The notes beneath the pieces were generated by a model. That model saw nothing but the letters and a program-made list of their open reading frames with translations. It was not told where the DNA came from and did not search any database. A stretch of 61,936 nt of DNA, filler included, from Sluysia triapertura (Eukaryota), in the NCBI GenBank assembly GCA_046118255.1. It is 5 parts of 5 records of this genome, joined end to end, with 100 filler letters (N's around TTAATTAATTAA, not from the genome) between each part and the next. Parts side by side here need not be neighbours in the genome. Positions count along the whole stretch, not along the records: positions 1 to 14,619 come from JBJNIA010253192.1; 4 more parts are not named here. One strand, 5' to 3'. Positions within the stretch are counted from its first letter, which is position 1; each line of letters begins with the position of its first letter. Below are positions 1-43,800 of the stretch, piece after piece. The translations under genes and the position numbers were made by a program.

Positions 1-77
1 GAAATTATTATTATGATTTAAACTGAACAAGATAATAATAGTGAGTTTAATATTTAACAAGTTTTAAAGACGCAACA
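1..77 (+). mobile_element. Terminal fragment of LTR-like family A
   Basis: Ends in AAAGACGCAACA, the same terminus as at 7565-7576 and, reverse-complemented, at 21672. Confidence 0.6.
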
Positions 78-1333
78 TAATCATTAGTAAAGTTATTGAC
101 AATGCGATAATGAATAACGTAGCTGAAATTATTAAATTAACTATTGACGGATGCTTTTTTAAAGTATCTATAATTGGTCCTTTGATTCTTTGTATAGCAA
201 AATGAAGTTGCTTAATAATTTTAGCTTGATGTTGGATGAATATTATTATATGTCTATCTTCTGAAAGTAAATAGTCCTTGCACATTGTTACTGGATACTC
301 TGTATTTGGTAGACCATGTCTATGTAATTCCCATATACTAAAATTAAGTCTTGCGGGGTTGATACATATGTACTGTGCTTTAATAATTCTAGTTACCTTA
401 ATTTGAACTTCTGTATCAAAATTATAAAAATCCAAATACTTCGATTTGTAAATTCTTTGTGATGCGTCCATAATTGTTATCAATGTTAGTAAGGTAAGTA
501 ACATCATGCTTGGTACCTTATTATTAACTCTTATAATCCTATTACAAGTAATTATATAGTAAATAGTGAACATCATATAAATTATGGTGAAGATTAAGAG
601 TGCAACTACAAAAATATTTTGCATTTCCAACCTATTTTCCTTACTTATATCTTTACTTATTTTCTTATTTAATTCGGTAGTAGTATTCGTGACTCTATTC
701 GATGTAGTAGGTAGTATTGTACTTATGGTTTTATTTATATCCTTTTTCTAAAAAATGTCCATGAAATCCATTATTACTGACTTATTATAAAGTGTAAATG
801 CTATTATTGTGGTATATTGAATTGAGTGCTCACATTTAAAAATATCTATTATTGAAGGTTTCTTTATTATCAATGCTTCAAAAAGTATGCAATATATAAT
901 CAGGAATTTCGTTTCTGTTAATATATTCAGCAGTCCAAAATCTATTGAATGTGTTTGTCAGAAAGAGATTTTGTTTAATATTGGTATAGCTTGTTACATT
1001 TATTGAATAATTCGTCATCATAGTTGTCAAGTGAAATAGAAATAGCATAAAAGTTATTATATAAAGATATTTATTATTTGAAATTGCCCTTATGAACATT
1101 ATACTGCTATCACTGTTACTAATACTAGTATTATTATCAGGAGTATTGTTATTACTAGTATTATTATCATTATTATTATTATCTGATCCGATATATGAAG
1201 TTCAAGATACTGTGGTATCCCACCAATCGAGATTTTCCCCATTTGGAGTTTGTGACGGTGGTAATACTGGATTTAATGGAGCAATTTGATAATTTTGTGG
1301 TTGTACCGGCGGTATTGTTCTTGCCATCGGAGG
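64..1333 (-). pseudogene. Env-like or membrane-protein extension of the Gypsy polyprotein
   Basis: Same frame as 1334-1906 through TGA stops: Pro-rich, Asn/Ser-rich and hydrophobic segments (878-1099); after a frameshift a Thr-rich stretch and ORF 64-630 with three hydrophobic segments. Confidence 0.5.
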
Positions 1334-1906
1334 TCAAACTAATTGTGGTAATACTACATGTGTACCTAGAGGTATTTTAAGAAATCCTAATATTCCGTGT
1401 ATTACTATATTTTCTGATTTGCTTAATACATCCATTCCTAATATAATATCGTATGGACATCTTTCCCAAGCTAAAAGTGTTACAAATATATCCACATCTA
1501 AGATTGTTAATTGACATTGTAGTATACCATTAAATAGAATATGTGAACCGTCTACTGCAAATAATCGTATACTCGCTTGTTGTAGCATATTGACTTCTAA
1601 AGCATTTAACACATTATAATTGATAATGGTATTCGAACCTGTATCTATAACTGCTCGTGCCCATCTTTGATTGAATTTAATGCTCTGAAATAGATGGTTT
1701 TGTATATTGAAATAGGAAGTTATAATATTTACCGTACTTATTGGTTTTGTCTCTTCACTCAATGATTTTGATGGATTATCTCTATCATTAATTCTTGGTT
1801 TAACTTTTAGTACACTTTTTGTAATTTTTCTATCCCTTAAATTATATTCATCATTAGGTGCCAATTTACATCGATTTAAATGTACAACAAAAGCTTCTAC
1901 ATTCAT
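1334..1906 (-). pseudogene. Second retropepsin-like aspartic protease, in frame after the integrase tail
   Basis: One ORF holds the integrase tail VVHLNRCK..YNLRDR, then RAVIDTGS, flap-like LFAVDGS and YDIILGMDVL. Confidence 0.85.
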
Positions 1907-2830
1907 ATCATTAGTTTTGAAGAATATCCTGGTTTCGCTATTGGATAGTCTATTAATACTTTATCTTCTATTTTAAAATTATGTTCATTTGCTTTTTGTC
2001 ATAATTATCTTTCAAGTTTCTTGCGTATAACGTATTTGTAAACCAGCGCTTTTCCATGCATCTTGTAAATTTTCTCTCAAAGTAGTAACACATTCTGGAG
2101 TTTCCATATATTTAGATGAAGGTGGTACCCAATCTAAGTCTACTGGCATGTTTGAATGTCTGTCGTACATGAGATAGAATGGTGTGAAATTAGTAGCAGG
2201 ATGTACTGAGATTCTGTACTCAAATAAACATGGTGATATATATAAGTCCCAATCTTTTTGTCTTTCGTTTACGTAGCATATTTACTACTAATCTTTCTAC
2301 TAATCCATCTGTCTGTGGATGGTATGGTGATGCATATATTTTTAAAATATTAAATATATTAGCAACGGATTTTATTACAAGGCTAGTAAATTAGTTCCCT
2401 GATCAGTTAATAATTTTCTTGGAGTTCCGTACCTGTATATTATTTTTTCTACTAATATTTGAGATACTGTTTCAGCTTTTTGATTAGGTATTGGGTGAGC
2501 TTCTGGCCATTTTGTTAAATAATCTGCGAATACTATTATATATTTATTTCCATTAATTGTTTCTGGCAATGGTCCCATTATATCCATTGCGGTGAATTCC
2601 ATTGGAGATAGTGGTATAGGCATTGGTCTTAATGGTAATTTTGTTTTTATCCCAGTATTCTTTCTTCTGCAACATATAGCAAAATTCTTACACCATTTTT
2701 TAATATCTTCTTCCATACTGTCCCAGTAATATTATTTTTAATTCTTGATAATGTTTTTCTTGTTGATAAGTGTCCATCGTGATATTGAATCAATAACGGT
2801 GTTATTACAGATTTCGGTACAATTGTTTTC
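1865..2830 (-). pseudogene. pol: Gypsy pol: integrase (zinc finger, catalytic core, C-terminal module)
   Basis: YHDGHL, WCKNFAIC, AMDIMGPLP, LLTDQG, YHPQTDGLVER, C-terminal VVHLNRCK. Confidence 0.95.
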
Positions 2831-3123
2831 CATTCGTTTTTTGAATCTCTAAAACGTAATATATCATCTGTTATTGATAACTTTTTAGCTTGATCTTCGT
2901 TCAACAGTCCTTTTGCTATAGCTTCAAATACATATGACATTTCTTCATCTTCTCTTTGATGTTTTATTATTTCTTTTGGTTCTTCCGCTTTTCCGAAATT
3001 GACATTATTTGAATAAAATTTATCTCTTTTTTCGTCATGATTTCTTAATTTTATATTCCCCTTTTCATCAGTATTTGTTAATCTTGACATACAATCAGCT
3101 CCATTGTTCATTGATCCTAGTTT

Positions 3124-3465
3124 TTATATTATTTGTAAATCGAATTCTACTAGTTTTGTGAACCGTCTATTTAATCTACTCACTTCGTCTTTTTGGTTGT
3201 ACAAGTGTGTTAATGACTTATGGTCAGTATATAAAAGCACTTTTTGTCCCAATAAATAGTGTCTGAATAACTTGCATGCATAGACAATTGCTAAACATTC
3301 TTTTTCAATTGTTGAATAATTCAATTCAGCTTTATTTATTCTCCTACTTACATATGCTATTACTCCTTCTAAATTTTCTTTATTTTTCTGTCTCAGAATT
3401 GCTCCTATTACAAAACTACTAGCATCTGTTGTTAGGATAAATGGTTTACTCATATCTGGGAACAT
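3124..3465 (-). pseudogene. pol: Gypsy pol: RNase H
   Basis: FILTTDASS...NYSTIEKECLAIV...LYTDHKSL, typical Ty3/Gypsy RNase H motifs. Confidence 0.95.
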
Positions 3466-4238
3466 TAGTTTTGATGCAGTTGTTAATTTTTTCTTTAATT
3501 CAATAAACGCTTTTGTTTGTTCTTCAGTTCATTTGAATATTGCATTCTTTTGTGTTAACATTCTTAAAGGTCTAGCTATTTTCGCAAAATCTTTTACAAA
3601 TCTTCTATAATAGTTGGCTAATCATAGAAAACCTTGAACTTTCTTTACATTATCTGGTGGTGGAAATTTAACAACTTTTTCCATATTTTTAGGATTTCGT
3701 TTTATACCTTTGTGTGAAACTATTATGACCTAAAAATTCAACTTGTTCTTATGCCCATACGCATTTAGTTGGTTTAACTTTCAATCTTGCGACTTCTAAT
3801 CTTTTTAATGTGTTATCAATATCTACTACTTGAGTATCAAAATCCTTAGAAAAAATTATTATATTATCAATATAAACCACAACATTCTTAAAACCGGACA
3901 GTACGAAATTCATACATCTGTGAAATGTTACCGATGCACTCGTTAATCCGAACGGCATTTTTTCACATTCGTACAATTCGTCTCCACATGAAAATGCTGT
4001 TTTATGTTTATCTTTTTCGGGTATTTCAATTTGTCACTAACCACTCTGCAAATCTATTGTTGTGAAATATTTAGCGTTTCCTAATTTATCTAGCATCTCA
4101 TCAATTCTTGGTAACGGCAATACATCTTTTCTTGTAATTTTATTCAATTCTCTAAAGTCAATACAAAATCTCATAGTTCCATATTTTTTCTTAACTAATA
4201 GCACCGGCCTTTTTCATCGTATCTATTTTATCTTTAAT
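3466..4238 (-). pseudogene. pol: Gypsy pol: reverse transcriptase
   Basis: [14 protein letters not shown]...[28 protein letters not shown] (YxDD decayed to YIDN), LANYYRRFVKDFAKIARPL. Confidence 0.95.
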
Positions 4239-4960
4239 TTATTGTTGGTTACTCAATGGAATTCTGTAAGGCTTCTTTCTCATTACTTTATCTTCTATTA
4301 ATGGGATTTCATGTTTTATTATGACGGAATCTCCAATATCATATTTGTTTCTTGTAATTGCCCATGGATATCTATGAATAGCTTTATATAATGTTTCTTT
4401 TTGTTGTTTAGTTAAATTATTATTCTTTATTTGTATTTCTTCGTAATCTTCTTCATCTTCAATATTTCTTTGTAGTTTTATGTTCTTATTTCTTGGTTTA
4501 TCATCTGATACCATTCTTATTTGTGTTTGTAATTTATAATTAACTATTTCTCCTAATTTGGTTCCTGCATATAACCATTTATTTTCATTTGTGTAATTTA
4601 TTATTCTTATTAATTCGTTAATTCTACATATTGAATCAGCAATACCTTTGTTTAATTTCTCTTGATTATTTTTCGAAGCTATAAACATTAGTGGGCTATT
4701 TCTTAAACTATTTGTTTTTCCTGGTATTATGCATTCTGTTCTTTTTAATAAACAACGTGGTTCTTCTAACATAATATCATCATTATCAATTGGTCTATCT
4801 GTATATGTATCCATTAATTTTGCTTTGCCAAAATCTAGTGAGACTCCTTTTAATTGTGATAATACATCCATACCTAATATCATGTCTTCTGGAGATTTTC
4901 TCTTTACCTTACATTTTATTTCAATTTTGTTTTGTCCAATTTCGCATAATATTTTTATTA
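4239..4960 (-). pseudogene. pol: Gypsy pol: C-terminal half of protease 1 and linker to RT
   Basis: EDMILGMDVLSQL retropepsin C-terminal motif; IKHEIPL...KKPYRIP marks the RT start. Confidence 0.85.
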
Positions 4961-6020
4961 ATGGGCATAATAGCTGTAAGCCAACACATTTAAATTTGTG
5001 CTATTTTAATTAATGCATAAAAATCACCTTCATAATATAATGATTGTAAAAATCTTAAATTTAATCCATTAAAAAATATCAAAAGTCACAAAATAGAGAA
5101 AAATATTACCATAAAATTACTAAATAATAAAGTTATAAAATCAGTGTTCATTATCTCTAATTTCAGTGTGATAATAAATGGCAAAAAATTAATAAAATAA
5201 CAATGGTTGACAATAATTTTTAATGAGAATAAAATTAATAAAATATATATTTGTAACATAATAATGAAATCAATATTTATAAATGAATTGAAATAATTTA
5301 AACCGGATAAAGTAATAAAAATATTTAAAATTATACCAACGTATAATATAGACGTATAATACAGAATGATGAAACACTTCTACAATTAGATAGATATCCA
5401 TAAATGTTTCACAAGATTGTATCAAAATAAAATTAAAAACAGGCAATAGGAACTCTATACGAACTGATTTAATTATAAAATAATAGCATATAAAAATATT
5501 CCTTAATAATACTTGAACGTATGTCATATAATTTATCCGTAAATGGAATAGAATAACTATCACATATCTACCAATAAAGTAGATAAATATAATAAAATAA
5601 ATGCAAGTAAATATAAAAATAATATGTCAATTTTGCGTAAATTGAAAAGAAACAATTATAACAAATTCAGTACATCATAATAACAATATTAAATTTTATA
5701 TTGTGGTTGTGTAAATGTTAAAGTAAGTATTTTTATGATTGTATGAAATTTGTTGAATATTGAGTTCCGAATTTTTATGTTATTTATTGATTTTTAATAA
5801 CTGCATTAGGTTGAGTTAAAGTTGTTTATGATAATTATATTTTGGCGTTGATTGCACTATAATTCTAAATGGTAATTTACCGTTATGTAAATGATACGAT
5901 TCATTTAGATAATCCATTAAGGAACTATAATATAATTAGAGCTCACCATGCATACATGGACTCATTTATCATGGACTCATTGCTAAAATGTCAAACATTC
6001 AATTATATCATTTATATACT

Positions 6021-6870
6021 TGTTGGGATTGCCCAGTTAATATATAGAAAATAGGTTAAAATGTAAGAAAATTCAAATATATATAAAGTATCTGAAATAC
6101 GATAATATAAACATAATTATATATTTCTAGAACAATAATAATGAACAGTAAAATGTTTATAATCATTTTAAAACCGAAGAATACCTTGGAGTTTCAAAGA
6201 CCTTTGTAGGGTATTGAGACCCTTACGAAGACTTAAGTAAGGTTTGGAAAGATGTTTTTAAGTAAGAAGATACCTTTGAACTTCCGAACCTTGGGATCAT
6301 TTGAGACCTTCAAGTAACTTTGTAAAAATGTTTAGAACCTTTAAAATCATAGTTAATAATATTAAAGATAAAATTAATACATTAATAATTAAAATAAAAA
6401 AGGAGAAAAAGGAATCAATGTGGTGAAGGTGAAAACATCTAGAGCCTCATGAGTACCTCATAAAGTATAACCATAATAAAACCTTTAAACTTAGAATAAA
6501 ACAAGTTAAAATAAATATATAATTAATTAAAATCTTATTTAACTTAATTAAGATAAATTACGTTTGTGTGAATAACTTTTGAATGAAGAATGCTATGTTC
6601 AAACTGTAACTGTGTATGTATGCGTTTTAAAGTGATCTTCCGATGAAGATAAGGTTGGATAGTTCATGCGAGGAAAGCCTCCGTATTGAGCAAAGTCGAA
6701 TATTAATTAATTTTTAATTAAAAATGCAGAAATTTTCATATTTAGAATGATGAAGAGATGATTTAGGTATGGAGTGACCTTAAATATTATCCATTAAAAA
6801 ATTGAGTATGACGAACTGAAAATTAATTAAACTGTAAACTAAAGGTAAATTCATAATTTTTATGTATGTC

Positions 6871-6912
<42 letters not shown>

Positions 6913-7576
6913 TGTTGTTGTTGTTGTTATTTTAATGTAAGAAGTGCTTCATGAAAAATAGATCGAGTAGAGTAAACGAAAAAAAATAAGAGTTGATTGT
7001 TAATCGAATTGTTATGTTTTGCTTTACTGGTCGTACCATGTAAATGTCAAAGTCGTTTTAGTCGGTTTAATCTTTAAAAGTAGTTTCGATGATATGTGTA
7101 AGAGTAATTCCTGATTGTGAGTTTGAGAATGATTGGACAATACAGAGATATAAAAGCGAATACTTAAAAAATTAACAACACAATCGATCATGGCGTAATG
7201 TAATGATCATATAATATTAAGTTGTTGTTTTTAATTTTTGGGTTGAATAAATATCATTATTAAGATAAGAAAATTGGTGATAAGTTGTACTTGATTTAGT
7301 GAATATTGAAATCATTTGAGGTTTAATTTATGTGAATTAAATTAATGTTGGATTATTCTTATTATTGATTTAAGGGCGTAACATTATTGTACTTGTTAGT
7401 TGAGTTTACAAAGATTTTAATATATAATTAGTATTTGCATTATTCTGTGAACAATGAAAGTTTACTGCAGTTAGAGAATAATCAATAAATAGTAACGATT
7501 AATGAAGATACATTGAAAATTTTGAGTTAATTTAATTATTAAGTTATTGTTAGTAATCTTATATAAAGACGCAACA
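6021..7576 (+). mobile_element. LTR-like family A, apparently full-length (about 1.55 kb)
   Basis: TGTTGGGATTG...GACGCAACA with TGTTG/CAACA inverted ends; flanks TACT/TAAT (possible 4-bp TSD with one mismatch); many diverged copies in the window. Confidence 0.7.
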
Positions 7577-7979
7577 TAATAATAAAATTCTAGTTAAAAT
7601 CGAAGTACATATAGCATGTGGTTTCTGACCAAACACCCTATTTTACGATTTAATAGATCCTATTACAGACAAATTTAAGAATACCATTACTACAATGTAA
7701 CGATTTTACATCATTTAATACCTCTATGAAATCTACAATACCATGTTCAGTTGTAAATGTCATTCAAATAATACTAATACTGATGTAAGACCTAAACCCA
7801 ACTTTTTATCGAAAACGATGAAGTCACCAAAGCGTAATCGCCGTAGGCAGAAATTAAGTGCGACTAAAATTGTTAATCCAATCTTAAAAAGACAAAATTA
7901 TAATATCATCGAAAAATTTATTAATACATTAATAATGAAAATTGTATAATGTTACATAAGCTTACGAAATTAATATTTA

Positions 7980-8668
7980 TTATTTTTATGTAATTTTTAT
8001 TCCTTCTGTTCATTATTTGGAATGACTCAACAAGTTTGTGCCCGAATTATCGACCAAGTAAGAATTTTTTATTCTTCTAAAAATATGTTCTGTATTAAGA
8101 ACCCTACCTTGGTTTATTTTGATGATTCGTCAACAACTTCGAATAAACCTAAAGTATCTACAAGACCATATTTATGTTGCTGTAGCTGGAGAAATTGTAA
8201 GAATAACTCTTACAATTGATGAAGTATACGCCTTTTCTACTACTCTCCAAATTAAAGCGCAGAAATTTCTAACCACTTTGGTACTTCTTTTTATTATACG
8301 AGATATTTGCTCTATATCTTTTTATCCAATTTACACATATGTCTTCCTCATCCATTTTCAACGAAAACAGTTACTCTTGTTAGTCAACTTTTAATTTTTA
8401 TATAAGCCTAACAGAATGTATTTACAGCTACCTCATATAGTAAACCGTATCATTTCGAAACAAACCGTATTTCACGCTATATGATCAAAACTTTCTCATG
8501 AACAAGTATGGCCTTGACAAAAAATATCTCTGGGGGTTCCGGATGAGGATAAGGTAAGACAATACCCCTCATGATACGATATTGGTGGTTGTAAACCATT
8601 CTTTGGTTATTAAAATTTTCAGAATTCATTTTAGTTGGTTGAAAGGTATAACCTACTGTGGTGGGCAT
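7980..8668 (-). pseudogene. Unidentified intronless coding remnant, convergent with ORF 7743-7949
   Basis: Higher GC and codon-like texture; ORF 8477-8668 continues through stops; no motif recognised. Confidence 0.25.
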
Positions 8669-9039
8669 TAAATGATTTATTATTTTTCATGCATTAAATT
8701 TATGAAATATTTTTATTATTTTTTTAAATTATAAACACTTAACTTTGGCTTAAGGTCTTTAACGAAAACAAATGAAATTATTTAGAACAGTTAAATTTAG
8801 AACACAAAATTTTATATTAAACAATAAAGTAACAGAAACAAGGCAACAAAATACCTTTAGAAATAGTTCATAAATAAGGAAATATGTTCTAGTTTGATTG
8901 TTTATGACATAGTATTAATGCATTTTTGTGCAAATCAACATGTAACAATAAAAACGTGTAACCAGTAATTGTAATAGAAGATAATAATTGTTGTAATACA
9001 ATAACTATCACATGACTACTGTGTAAGAGGTCATATATA

Positions 9040-9453
9040 CATTCCGACCACGAAATGGGGCAAAATTTCCCCAATTTTGAGGTTTTCCTCAAAATACGGG
9101 TCTTCAAAAATTAAGTAAAACATGTGGGAAAAATGACTTTTATGATAAAGAAATTACTGTAATTTGTATTAAAAACAAGATAAATCATTACATTTAAAAA
9201 ATGAACTTTCAAGTGGGAGAAATTAGTTGAAATTTTGAAAAATGAAATTAAAATTTTTTTAAACTTTGTTTAAATATTTGATTTATTATATCTATTAATT
9301 AATAAATCAAATCTATTTTATTAATAAATCTATTTTATTTTTCAAACTTTCAACTAATTTTCCCCACTTAAAAGTTCATTTTTAAAAAAAAGCATATTTT
9401 TATGAGGATTACTATTATGGTGACAAAATTTTCCCCAAAACGTGGTCGTACTG
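9040..9453. mobile_element. Tc1/pogo-type MITE, largely palindromic
   Basis: TA|CATTCCGACCACGAAATGGGG ... CCCCAAAACGTGGTCGTACTG|TA; additional internal inverted repeat about 9195-9245 versus 9340-9385. Confidence 0.85.
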
Positions 9454-10913
9454 TACCACATTATGCATAAATATGTTAGTTTTCATCGAATCATAATAAA
9501 TTGCGATAAAATAAATATAAGAAAACAGACTTGCCTTGATAACATCGAAAAATATAGAAGTATTCGCAAAAAATATGGTTAAAATAATTGCTTTAAGTGT
9601 TGGATATTTGATTAAAACTCAATGGAGTTTATAAATTATTTCACCATAATATTTCAATTTATATAAAAATAATAAGATGATTAAGGCCACAATAAAATAA
9701 GTACCAATAAAATACGCAGATGAAAACATAAAATGTTTCATTGTATAATAAACACCACAAAATGTATAAACAAACTCACTAAATTTATCACTTGTATCAA
9801 TTAAATTTTCTAAAATTGGAGATGCCGTTTCATCGTGTGGTAGCCAACATTCATAATCACAAAATAAATCTATTAAAATTTCACAACATCTAAATCACAA
9901 TCATATTTTACACTACCAGATTACATTAACCAACTTTTCAGAAACAATACTCTACATTTACAATAATTCAACAACAAACACATCTGAAACAACCCTTTCG
10001 AACCTTCAATTTATACTACTCTATAACAGTTAATACTCAATATGTGATAATATTTACTCAGTAGTTTATTGGTTTAAATCAAATCACAATCACAACTTCC
10101 AACATACAAATCACAAGTACATTTAATACTATTTCACAACATCAATAAATTTACTCGAAACATATAGAGTACCTACTTCATACCTTCGAATTAACTACAA
10201 CATGTCGAATGCACTACTCATCAACGCATAATCATCATTAACACAGAACATCAACACTAAAAACACCAAACAAAATAATCACACAAAACATAGCATAATA
10301 ACATCATCAATATACAAAGAGTTATATTGTAATTCTCCTCGTAAATTCAATAAATTACTGTCTTCTCAATAAACCTTTATCCATTATAATTCAATACGTA
10401 AGACTTGTTTTCAAATATTAAATTTTCAATCAATTTAGAAGAGCTTATCCTAACACTCTTCATTTCGTTTCTAACTCAAACCAATCATTATATCTTCATA
10501 GGTTAACTCTACTTAACAATCATTTTGTTTATTTCAAAATGCATTTTAACTCATTCCAACATGCTTAAATCCTTCAAGAATTTAATACAAATCTAACACA
10601 GCTCTAAAGAGTTAATTTTATAAAACAAAGCACCAACAATAACTCGAGCATCGTGTACCCTGTCACTTTGCTTCTTCAAGCACATCAGCGATCTTTATTT
10701 CAGTTTGTCTTTTATATGTAAGAAATAAACAGTGAAGAAAGAAAAGTTCACGTTGTTTTGTAAAGAAAGTTTATGCGTTAAATTACATTTTTTGTTTCAT
10801 TAGTAATAATAATAACAATATTATTGTAAATATTATTATTATCAGTTATATAACTAAATCAGTAAATTATTTTATCCAAAGTTTCAATTCCAATTGTCAA
10901 ATCTGGTATCTAT

Positions 10914-11149: not shown

Positions 11150-12068
11150 AATTTTCAAAAAGATACTCAAAATTTACGAAACGATAGAATAAAAAACTTG
11201 GAGTATATACTATCGAAAACTCAAATCCGTTTTAAGTGAATTTTTTAAAGCCGATAATGATATATAATCAATCATTGATATATCCAATGATGTTAAACTA
11301 CACATTCACAACTTCCACCAAGAAATCGAATCTGATGAAGCAAATCATATGGGAGAATTAATAAGAATGATTAAAGCCATTGATGATCCTAACCAATTGT
11401 TATATCTTATTAATTTTACTTTAGATCCAGATTTTAGTTAAAGTTTTAATTCAACATTGTATTCTCTTATGATAATTAAAGATGAGTATGTTGTGATTCA
11501 TTCATATAAATCAACATGCGATATCGTCACTGAGTTAGTAACTCAACTAACAGAAAACGAGACTTTGAATTTTGATCCGAATAATCTGGTTGTTTATCAC
11601 ACCAAAATAAAGAATTTAAGCGATTCCAAAAGCTATGATGAAATAGTCGAATCAGCAGACGTAAGAGCTGAATTAACTATGAAATTAAAAGGAGTACAAG
11701 TCGAGATCGACATGCTGAATAAAGTTTTTAGAAATGCAACAAAACTACATATATTTCATATGCAAGCTACAGAAAGTTTAAATAACGCTGAAACTGTTTA
11801 TGTACTAATTAGCCCATCAACAATATACCAATTCATGTATGTTACTCGTAATTCAACTATGTCAAGGAGAATGACGCTCATTTATGAGAGACTATTAGGT
11901 CACGAAGAGGTATTCTTATATCTAACTAACCTTATATCACGAACCTTATACCCACGTGATCGTCAATCAACAGTGAAGTTTATAATTATTTCTAATGCTT
12001 TTAATAAACTAACAAATCTCAAAGGTAAGTGCTCAAATTCAACGAATGATGAAATTATTATGCTATAA
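11150..12068 (+). pseudogene. Intronless ORF of unknown family X, copy 1 (weakly MSV199-like)
   Basis: 203-aa ORF 11457-12068 extends upstream through stops; AATAAA at about 12135; colinear similarity to 42700-43800. Confidence 0.5.
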
Positions 12069-41839: not shown

Positions 41840-42505
41840 TAATTTATGCTTCGCTCATATGTACGGCAAAATAAGTACTCAGAAGCGCTTAAAATAAATC
41901 ATTCAGTGTAATATTTCTGAAACAGAAAGAACGATGCCTTTTTTTAAAGATTTCGTATTCCAGTAATTTGACATTCTCTTGTAGTTGCTTGTTTATTTTT
42001 GAAACATAAACGGAATATAACCTGTAACCTAGCTTATTATCACTGTGGATTCTTTATTTATTATTATGTCTCAATGAAATATTCATCTTGGTTTCCAATT
42101 TTTATTATTTCTAAGAGATAATCAGGACTTCCGTAATGTAAGCATTTGTAAATTATTGTCATGATTTTGAATTCAATTCTTGCTTTTATTGGCAACCTAT
42201 GTAATTCCTTAAGATAAGGTGTTACATGAGATCTTCTTCCCACTTAGAGAATTAGTCTTGCTGCTTGATTAATTATTAATTGTAATTCACTTTTCTATAT
42301 GAATCTTTGTACAGTATTCCATTGTTAAAATCTCTGTTGTTAGTTATCAATGAATAAACAATTAGTTTGGCTGCTTTATTAATAAATTTTCGAATATTTG
42401 ATATTTTATTTAATTGATATTTACACTTTTTAGCAATACAATTAATATTTTCTTCCATGTTCATTTTTGAATCCATATAACAACCTATACATGTACTAAA
42501 AATCG
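41840..42505 (-). mobile_element. 5'-truncated L2/Crack-type LINE (post-RT ORF2 tail and 3' UTR)
   Basis: CIGCYMDSKMNM..YQLNKISNIRKFI..AAKLIVYSLI, QAARLI..RSHVTPYLKELHRLPIKARIEFKI..YKCLH; 3' AAGCGCTTCTGAG motif. Confidence 0.85.
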
Positions 42506-42699
42506 TTAATTTTATATGATTTACAATTAAGTTGCTTGTAAGAGTCTCTCTTAATAATAAATAAAAATAACGATACTCTGTTCGTGTAACATAAATATTT
42601 AAAATTACTTTAAATCTATACTTGTTAAACTGACTAGAAGATGCAATATTGTTCGTGGTCTTAGTGTGAATTTTATTGGTTTGTAGATTATGGCTAAGT

Positions 42700-43800
42700 G
42701 CGTTATTTTGTACTGACATGAGCAAATCATTCAAACGTCCCAAGTGTTCATTACTGAATTGATTTTTAAGCCATGATAATTTGATTCTAAGATACTATGA
42801 AAATAACAGCAACGTACGCCAAATTTAAGACATGCCGGATTCGTATAGCTGAGATGGACACTGTGCCGAAATTTTATAGATATCAGAAATTACACTTGGA
42901 TTAGAAATAAGTGATTTAGATTGATTGATCTTGTGGTTGATCAGATTGGATATCATACTTTGTTTACTTTTGACTTCATTATAGTTAACCATATTCATTT
43001 GAGATCGTATATATATTACAATTAAACCTTCAAAAATAAATGATGGAAAACTAAGGTCCATATTTTTACTATTATAATTAGCAGTGAATTCACTTATGTT
43101 GGCTTTATTAAAATTTTGATATAAATTTACTTGATTGGTAATATTGACGATAAAATTAGGATCTCTTCGATTCAAGGAGAGTAAAATAACTTCTGAAGCA
43201 GTATTATTTCTTAATGTACTGATCTTGTTGACTAAACAAGTATAAGATATATCTGAAAGATATTGTATTGATCCTTTATACAAATTATCCAGATTTATTT
43301 TGTATAACATCAACAAACGAATGTTAATAATGCGTGGAATGCATAATTTGAACACGTTCTAGATCAGATGTATCGTATAAAAATATTATTGAGTTTTCAC
43401 CATAATTAAACTCTTCATGAAATGAATTAACTATCTTTTCGGAGTGTTGACAAAATTTGGAAAAGAAATTACCAAAGAATCTCTTACTATTATTGAAATC
43501 GTTCTTTGCTTTTATTAAAAGTCCATTGAGTACATGATTATTAATTAATTTTAAGACAATAATGAAATTATTAGTTTGTGATTCCTTTTCATCATCAAAA
43601 TATTTCGCTTTGATTCTGATGAAATCTCTTTCTCTTATAATATACATATTTCTTCCATTCACTGAAAACATATTATACTTATGAAACAAATGTGTAAAAA
43701 TTTTTTGGTATTCGTAAATTTTTAGTACTTTTTTTAAATCTGATTTTTATTAGATTCTATTTTTAGATTTTTACCTGTCTCGAAAAGTAATTTTTAATTC
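42700..43800 (-). pseudogene. Intronless ORF of unknown family X, copy 2 (frameshifted)
   Basis: ORFs 43324-43689 and 42825-43355 align in order with 11150-12068: VQIMHS/VVIHS, IQYLSDISY/IKNLSDSKSY, LISNPSVI/LISPSTI. Confidence 0.5.

Follow-up and report, generated by a model that had tools for sequence, protein, structure and literature searches.

Two putative membrane-protein cassettes in tandem after the integrase of a decayed Ty3/gypsy element from Sluysia triapertura, a relative of GAG-ENV(gB)-POL retrotransposons

GAG-ENV-POL retrotransposons with a gB-type envelope were described in nematodes, bryozoans and flatworms (PMC13524379, Chary & Hayashi, eLife, in the part of the study available). 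These errantiviruses, especially 'Platyhelminthes C1a' of Schmidtea mediterranea, have a Ty3/gypsy pol, as does the element presented here, and a gB-type env placed before pol, and the spans listed for them, 14.5–18 kb (which appear to include 3-kb extensions), fit the ORFs of ~2,800–4,000 amino acids discussed below. The main text of that paper, as available, mentions neither extra proteases nor a post-integrase membrane protein (the words 'fibronectin', 'immunoglobulin' and 'exonuclease' occur 0 times and 'protease' once). The planarian gypsy element Burro/GYPSM1 has the same layout, i.e., a huge ORF with an in-frame env between gag and pol that gives matches to mononegavirus fusion proteins, and it is present in thousands of copies (PMC6431247, available part). 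Burro also carries, in the PR-RT interval, a dUTPase-like domain, to which our element shows a weak, non-significant likeness, and, in common with the 23 relatives of our element introduced below, ankyrin, RING and ubiquitin/SUMO-like domains as well as accessory ORFs. Its ORF1 is of 4,873–5,140 amino acids and includes MATH, BIR, BCL2 and Smc domains in an element of >30 kb, while the relatives reach 4,057 amino acids; no second protease or FN3 membrane tail is named in the portion of that report at hand (PMC6431247), and the comparison with Burro is one of descriptions. An earlier note on this DNA took the env of errantiviruses to be a separate ORF; as a general rule this is too narrow, since the Burro env, as described, lies in frame between gag and pol (PMC6431247). 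None of the MATH, BIR, BCL2 or Smc domains was listed among the 23 relatives.

In the Drosophila-type errantiviruses (gypsy, ZAM, Idefix) the Ty3/gypsy pol is likewise followed by a membrane glycoprotein, and their env is spliced. This env is, according to the available part of PMC13524379, a separate ORF coding for an F-type fusogen, whereas here a short protein that is no fusogen continues pol in frame. Atlas virus and other belpaoviruses encode a single Gag-Pol-Env polyprotein of ~2,800 amino acids with glycoproteins after pol, which resembles our layout, but Atlas virus is a BEL/Pao element with phlebovirus-like Gn-Gc, while ours is gypsy-type and lacks an ectodomain of Gc size (10.64898/2026.03.22.711591, available part). 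The rotifer elements Vesta and Juno carry, downstream of pol, ORFs for DEDDy exonucleases and short transmembrane (TM) proteins, as the relatives do (PMC5408684, available part); these are separate ORF3s, with no gB and no extra protease in the text at hand, and a different lineage is assumed. Within the open literature searched, outside which most subscription papers fall, no description of a post-integrase cassette composed of a protease and an FN3 membrane protein was found in print.

The window, by which we mean the whole stretch of DNA analysed (61,936 nucleotides, fillers included, from S. triapertura), contains at one edge a Ty3/gypsy pol that runs on the minus strand from ~5000 downward and, by six-frame translation and Pfam, comprises a PR1 remnant, RT, RNase H, integrase, a second protease (PR2) and a tail; all features of the element given below lie on the minus strand. 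The C-terminal remnant of PR1 (4851–4955) corresponds to positions 61–95 of the protease HMM (E 0.002). It is followed, in the PR-RT interval, by a weakly dUTPase-like region (4506–4880), for which a profile built with four relatives gave dUTPases as the top three PDB matches, at the non-significant E of 0.16–0.26; no Pfam match to dUTPase was obtained between PR and RT in the window. Reverse transcriptase (3725–4252; Pfam RVT_1, E 6e-14; tblastn) is interrupted by stops and frameshifts, RNase H occupies 3142–3456 (Pfam RT_RNaseH, E 8.5e-37), and the broken integrase (1868–2820; Pfam Integrase_H2C2 and rve), with H2C2, core and C-terminal part, ends in the clade motif VHxNRC. PR2 (1418–1690) is a second aspartic protease in frame after the integrase, with intact DTG (Pfam gag-asp_proteas, E 3.5e-5; clade protease HMM, 60.6 bits, E 6e-18). 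The PR-RT-RH-IN order and the gypsy-type domains, found by Pfam, tblastn and HMM, are those of a Ty3/gypsy (Metaviridae) pol. A belpaovirus of the Atlas/Cer7 kind was also considered and rejected, given the gypsy-type Pfam set, the tree and the lack of a Gc match. No gag, env or 5′ LTR of the element is located within the window, no matching terminal repeats (paired LTRs) were found for this copy, truncated at ~5000 and at the window edge, and neither tblastn nor HMM detected a gB remnant in the window (best E of the gB HMM, 1.4). The element from ~5000 to the window edge is a decayed, dead, 5′-truncated Ty3/gypsy copy.

Other copies were compared through one public run, X1 (contigs, 24% of words, possibly the source sample), with 36,190 records on positions 1–7500. 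Summed depth in X1, which is not a copy number, was 8,825–123,898 over the bins of the tail and 48,702–334,642 over pol, as against 292–1,016 over 5001–6000, and it fell from 76,843 to 1,016 at 5000/5001, where the copy is cut inside PR1. The tail therefore belongs to a repeated element, of which the present copy is cut at ~5000. Two of the stops in the tail are specific to this copy and not common to the others: among the best 40 of 933 difference rows, the stop at 1334–1336 has another letter in 22,343 of 22,358 depth and that at 748–750 in 11,215 of 11,225 (run X1). Stops conserved after PR2, which the earlier note had named as grounds against its own reading, were thus not seen at these two positions.

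Overall GC is ~22%, and recognisable host genes were not found in the 62 kb. A second very high-copy repeat family, with depth up to 637,876 and without a long ORF, occupies 6020–7370, and copies of it, 65–81% identical, lie at 14.8–15.1, 21.9–22.6, 31.5–34.0, 37.0–38.3 and 47.5–47.8 kb. A MITE-like inverted repeat (9193–9387) has 94-nt arms, 76% complementary, and a 7-nt loop. The lone 208-codon ORF at 11442–12068 (plus strand) has no Pfam match, and three neighbouring ORFs of 140–177 amino acids at 42276–43746 (minus strand) have no significant one; the last of them presumably resembles a LINE reverse transcriptase at its C-terminal end. Between 14620 and 50474 there are two longer gaps and four pairs of 44-N gaps, the members of a pair being separated by 12 bases. 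Rfam gave no match in the window.

Beyond PR2 the same frame continues in translation through the TGA codons at 1334–1336, 1202–1204 and 878–880, yielding a Pro/Gln-rich linker flanked by two of them (1205–1333), an Asn/Ser/Asp tract, a hydrophobic stretch and seven sequons, five of which fall inside the tract. A second frame is open from ~957, is interrupted by TAG at 748–750 and then enters a 227-codon ORF (67–747), which encodes three hydrophobic segments and a stalk rich in Thr/Ser (10 of 27 residues). Both the run through the TGA codons and the frameshift, stalk and three further segments had been reported in the earlier note and are seen in the translation; the TAG was not mentioned there. 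Since both frames are open over ~881–957, the third TGA (878–880) may sit beyond the frameshift. Read in this way, the tail starts with H1 (1016–1069; KD17 1.86, KD19 1.56), a weak candidate for the first signal, followed by ectodomain 1 (751–1015), where the frameshift (within ~881–957) and the stop at 748–750 fall, the stalk with two sequons (658–738), the TM anchor H2 (559–615; KD19 2.55) and a short basic loop (517–558). Then come H3, a candidate internal second signal (466–516; KD12 2.48, KD19 1.63), ectodomain 2 of ~105 amino acids with two Cys and one sequon (136–459), the second TM anchor H4 (73–135; KD19 2.70) and a stop at 64–66, past which no further stop occurs between 63 and the window edge. 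The window thus contains, after PR2, two signal-ectodomain-TM-like units in tandem, the first of them with the Thr/Ser stalk before its anchor, where signals and TM segments are called by hydropathy (KD) only. The Asn/Ser/Asp tract (1102–1187), with 12 Asn in 25 residues versus at most 8 in 21 relatives carrying the integrase end motif, is an AAT-like low-complexity repeat whose translation in another frame is hydrophobic and rich in Ile (KD19 3.93). Either H1 or this Ile-rich stretch may thus be the first signal, and one decayed copy cannot decide between them.

One may ask whether such a tail is coding at all, as hydrophobic segments are cheap in DNA of 74% AT: other, non-coding frames contain 0.96 of them per 227 residues, a rate that, together with the simple-repeat nature of the Asn tract and the absence of database matches of the tail, would suit AT-rich DNA that does not code and owes its hydrophobicity and sequons to base composition. 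Of the four segments, H2 and H4 are strong, the second-best segment being equalled in 2 of 2,000 shuffles, with the caveat that two segments at ≥1.8 arose in 380 of 2,000, and H1 and H3 are weak (signal-like at best). Hydrophobicity alone is weak evidence of coding in such DNA. The composition reading is nevertheless very improbable and largely refuted, since the 227-codon ORF is matched by none of 9,362 stop-to-stop runs in 7501–61936 (≥227 amino acids) and by none of 1,000 dinucleotide shuffles (longest ORF 129 amino acids), the two-part tail frame has 13 stops versus 29 and 61 in the other frames, stops are copy-specific and 21 of 23 relatives have coding sequence in this slot. Only for H1 and its sequons may base composition remain the explanation. 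The tail is a real, coding, multi-copy feature.

The relatives were collected by a search with integrase-PR2 (88 matches), among metagenome loci (best 80 of 474) and among long proteins (51 matches), which led to 23 sequences. The motif VHxNRC at the integrase end was present in the window and only in 6 of the 88 matches of the first search. In an IQ-TREE analysis of 34 rows, the pol of the window (X at breaks) belonged to a 20-row clade with UFBoot/SH-aLRT of 100/99; the partial sequences L001, L018 and P0006 and the near-identical copy P0101 of L002 were left out, and L004, whose pol is that of P0007, was counted once. The same group was recovered in a 99-row tree, made with FastTree only (SH-like support 96–99). 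The sister branch of the window has support of only 82/90, and the relatives are only ~53% identical to the window in pol. As 15 of the 19 other clade rows of the tree have gB before pol, and the remaining four begin at or just before pol, the pol of the window groups with gB-bearing elements, which makes the element a probable member of the GAG-ENV-POL gB errantiviruses. The gB of the relatives shares motifs and spacing with six S. mediterranea Env rows of the available part of PMC13524379, as judged by eye only, and with that likeness the clade is likely linked to flatworms. One member, P0004, nested in this animal-type retroelement clade, was deposited as a bacterial MAG (Turicibacter sp.) and is probably host DNA binned into it. 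Further long gypsy polyproteins with PF24664 (P0036, P0117 and P0126, the last also with dUTPase PF00692) fall outside the clade.

The relatives are intact single-ORF elements with ORFs of about 2,693–4,057 amino acids, and their shared layout supports the idea of the earlier note that one giant ORF joins a membrane glycoprotein in frame to pol. The order is Gag, signal, gB, TM, protease(s), RT, RNase H, integrase, optional protease(s) or ankyrins, signal, short ectodomain, Thr/Ser stalk, TM and cytosolic tail. In 15 of 23 relatives, i.e., in all 15 that reach upstream, the reading frame includes a fusogen of the gB type between gag and pol (PF24664, lowest E 1e-101); the other eight begin at or just before pol. 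Twelve of the 23 have extra aspartic protease(s) after the integrase, and ankyrins occur in four, three of which (L002, P0101, P0105) combine them with an extra protease after the integrase. The signal-ectodomain-stalk-TM cassette follows the integrase in 19 of 23 (the signal of L003 by eye); P0004 and P0009 have the signal without a clear TM, and P0006 and P0100 end after the extra protease without a cassette. Two cassettes in tandem after the integrase were found in none of the 23. L003 carries an additional signal-FN3-like-TM cassette in the gB-RT interval (L003:4230–5520, amino acids ~1410–1840 of ORF 2–10279), with two proteases before it and one after, which suggests that the cassette can move or duplicate inside the polyprotein. 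In P0005, P0006, P0003, L002 and P0105 up to four aspartic protease domains are present per polyprotein. Some have a degenerate catalytic motif, and between some of them lie ankyrin repeats or C2H2-like zinc fingers (by eye).

Does the tail, then, represent the envelope itself, as the earlier note had proposed? It has no fusogen match, and among the relatives all 15 that reach upstream have gB between gag and pol, while none of 23 has it after the integrase, which speaks against that proposal. Searches with the tail gave no match by phmmer over 1.84 billion proteins, in the ESM Atlas or among viral contigs, nor did PR2 plus tail in a protein search restricted to 654–2000 amino acids; Pfam returned a sub-threshold Orf78 match on H2 only (E 0.018) and, for fusogen families, nothing at E up to 1. 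Pairwise comparison with the ectodomains of the relatives revealed no significant similarity (best z 2.0), and a single-sequence AlphaFold model of ORF 67–747 was all helix with pLDDT 52 and thus uninformative. The gB ectodomains of the relatives have 535–546 amino acids and 14 Cys, in comparison with ~105–190 amino acids and two Cys in each ectodomain of the window. A class III gB-type fusogen (PF24664) was accordingly rejected for the tail, which is too small, Cys-poor and without a family match, as was a separate F-type env ORF of the Drosophila type, given a tail in frame with pol and without a Pfam fusogen match; the F-type match P0070 is outside the clade. Fusogen identity of the tail is excluded by size and family.

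The fusogen could, in turn, lie beyond position 1 of the window, the tail being only the start of an envelope, as in BEL elements of the Atlas/Cer7 type with Gn-Gc after pol. The element may continue outside the window (in run X1, 1–250 has a depth of 123,898 and 51 records overrun the ends of 1–7500), the frame stays open to the edge and the signal-TM-signal-TM pattern recalls viral glycoprotein precursors. Such an arrangement is unlikely for a gypsy-type pol nested among elements with an upstream fusogen and none downstream in 23, and the five loci that extend past the tail carry there separate cytosolic ORFs (exonuclease, RING) rather than glycoproteins. These ORFs, separate from the polyprotein (L002:7268–10371, L003:10617–12104, L004:5011–6525, L018:3723–5873 and L001:3839–4297), are mostly related to each other (blastp E 1e-4 to 1e-34), and two match the DEDD exonuclease family PF00929. 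L002 has two of them in tandem and a ubiquitin-like ORF, and L018:2055–3389 encodes a RING protein. Still less probable is that the tail is a small fusogen, FAST-like or novel, that replaced a gB lost in this lineage. Vesta elements of rotifers have short TM ORFs for which a fusogen role was proposed (PMC5408684, available part), for Drosophila elements such a role was shown (PMC11952523, available part), and the tandem cassette is unlike any relative, but gB is kept in every relative that reaches upstream, the ectodomains of the relatives, FN3- or Ig-like, are adhesion folds rather than fusion folds, and there is no fusogen family match. The suggestion that the element is possibly infectious draws on the gB of the relatives, a protein missing from the truncated copy of the window.

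What the relatives carry in the post-integrase slot is mostly a module of ~90 amino acids with a Cys pair, present in one to three copies in 15 of 23. In leave-one-out tests with the module profile, 10 of 12 held-out modules scored above all 200 shuffles (the other two, 6/200 and 17/200), and the profile found modules in seven further proteins, with up to 34 bits. AlphaFold on the nine-row module alignment returned a seven-stranded sandwich (pLDDT 85), for which the top PDB matches in Foldseek were all fibronectin type III (E 4e-4 to 3e-3, TM ~0.5–0.65), as were the top matches in the ESM Atlas (score 0.91); Pfam fn3 was reached in one of nine modules only, at E 0.089. The module is thus predicted to fold as fibronectin type III. 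Other fillers of the slot are an Ig domain (P0009) and a small Cys-rich domain (P0007, P0106). Ectodomain identity in three close pairs was 57%, 41% and 40%, versus 94%, 88% and 90% in RT and 94%, 94% and 64% in gB; taken over more domains, it was 57% where RT, IN and gB have 94–98%, 41% where they have 88–95%, and 23–26% where RT has 72–88%. By these comparisons the post-integrase ectodomain diverges far faster than gB or pol, which explains why the tail of the window has no direct matches.

For the tail itself, FN3 homology is only hinted at (P about 0.005–0.06). Positions 1058–1150 weakly resemble strands one to three of the module (first 31 profile positions), with 11.3 bits where none of 78 control segments exceeded 7.5; hhalign gave P 0.0054 and a probability of 6.7%. 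Against the whole module, the window scored 1.0 and −0.8 bits (as high in 9/150 and 7/150 shuffles), below five held-out true modules (3.8–25.3); the −0.8 bits are those of ectodomain 2, in an unbroken alignment at 417–169, for which hhalign was negative. With the two frames joined by X at the frameshift, the profile gave 4.2 bits (2/100 shuffles), no gain over a single frame, and a frameshift-aware alignment gave 3.8 bits at a penalty of −6, versus at most 1.4 in 78 controls and with 0 of 60 triplet shuffles as high, while at −3 three of the 78 controls were higher, so that no claim is based on it.

Taken together, the region is best explained, with a probability of roughly 0.7, as the C-terminal accessory part of the long polyprotein of a GAG-ENV(gB)-POL Ty3/gypsy element, present here as a dead, 5′-truncated copy. 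Most likely the tail occupies, with two tandem cassettes, the place where a flatworm/Burro-like errantivirus has its accessory type-I membrane protein, and we infer the gB of the family of the window from relatives ~53% identical to it in pol. In such a scheme a single polyprotein would cross the ER membrane wherever a signal/TM pair occurs; internal signals would bring gB as well as the tail ectodomains into the lumen, and signal peptidase would free their N-termini. The extra aspartic proteases, at the cytosolic edge of the membrane cassettes, would cut Pol from its anchors. The tail would then give small type-I glycoprotein(s) made 1:1 with gB, in the window two of them, H1-E1-H2 and, after the short basic loop, H3-E2-H4.

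Class III fusogens often rely on partner proteins, and the tail protein may attach the particle or donor cell to the target cell, with gB performing fusion. This role of attachment or adhesion partner, favoured by the fast divergence of the ectodomain, which fits host-surface binding, is rated at a little short of even odds. A less probable role within the same architecture would be that of a host-manipulating surface protein, i.e., an immune decoy, a factor of receptor interference that blocks superinfection or a modulator of adhesion or signalling. Very fast divergence and a swappable ectodomain (FN3, Ig, Cys-rich) would suit it, as would the ankyrin, RING, ubiquitin-like and DEDD exonuclease cargo of the clade, comparable to that described in the available part of the Burro report (PMC6431247); the fixed in-frame position, the predicted 1:1 stoichiometry with gB and the stalk-plus-anchor in 19 of 23 relatives fit a particle-surface protein equally well or better. 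Returning to the attachment role, we propose, tentatively and with some doubt, that this lineage of gB retrotransposons carries a two-component entry apparatus in one polyprotein, composed of a class III fusogen before pol and a hypervariable FN3/Ig attachment protein after the integrase, each freed by its own duplicated protease, with the cassette doubled in the family of the window. Herpes- and paramyxoviruses, where fusogen and receptor binding are split, would offer a parallel, and a description of a gB plus a post-integrase attachment protein was not found for Metaviridae.

The copy in the window is itself dead and adds little beyond the unusual tandem cassette. For annotation it is a warning that a TM-rich ORF after the integrase is not necessarily env. 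How env-bearing retrotransposons choose their target cells is an open question outside Drosophila, and fusogens of the gB type usually get their specificity from partners. The fast-evolving FN3/Ig-like surface protein, co-translated with gB, would be a named candidate for target specificity; its clade probably has a link to flatworms, which harbour such elements in abundance.
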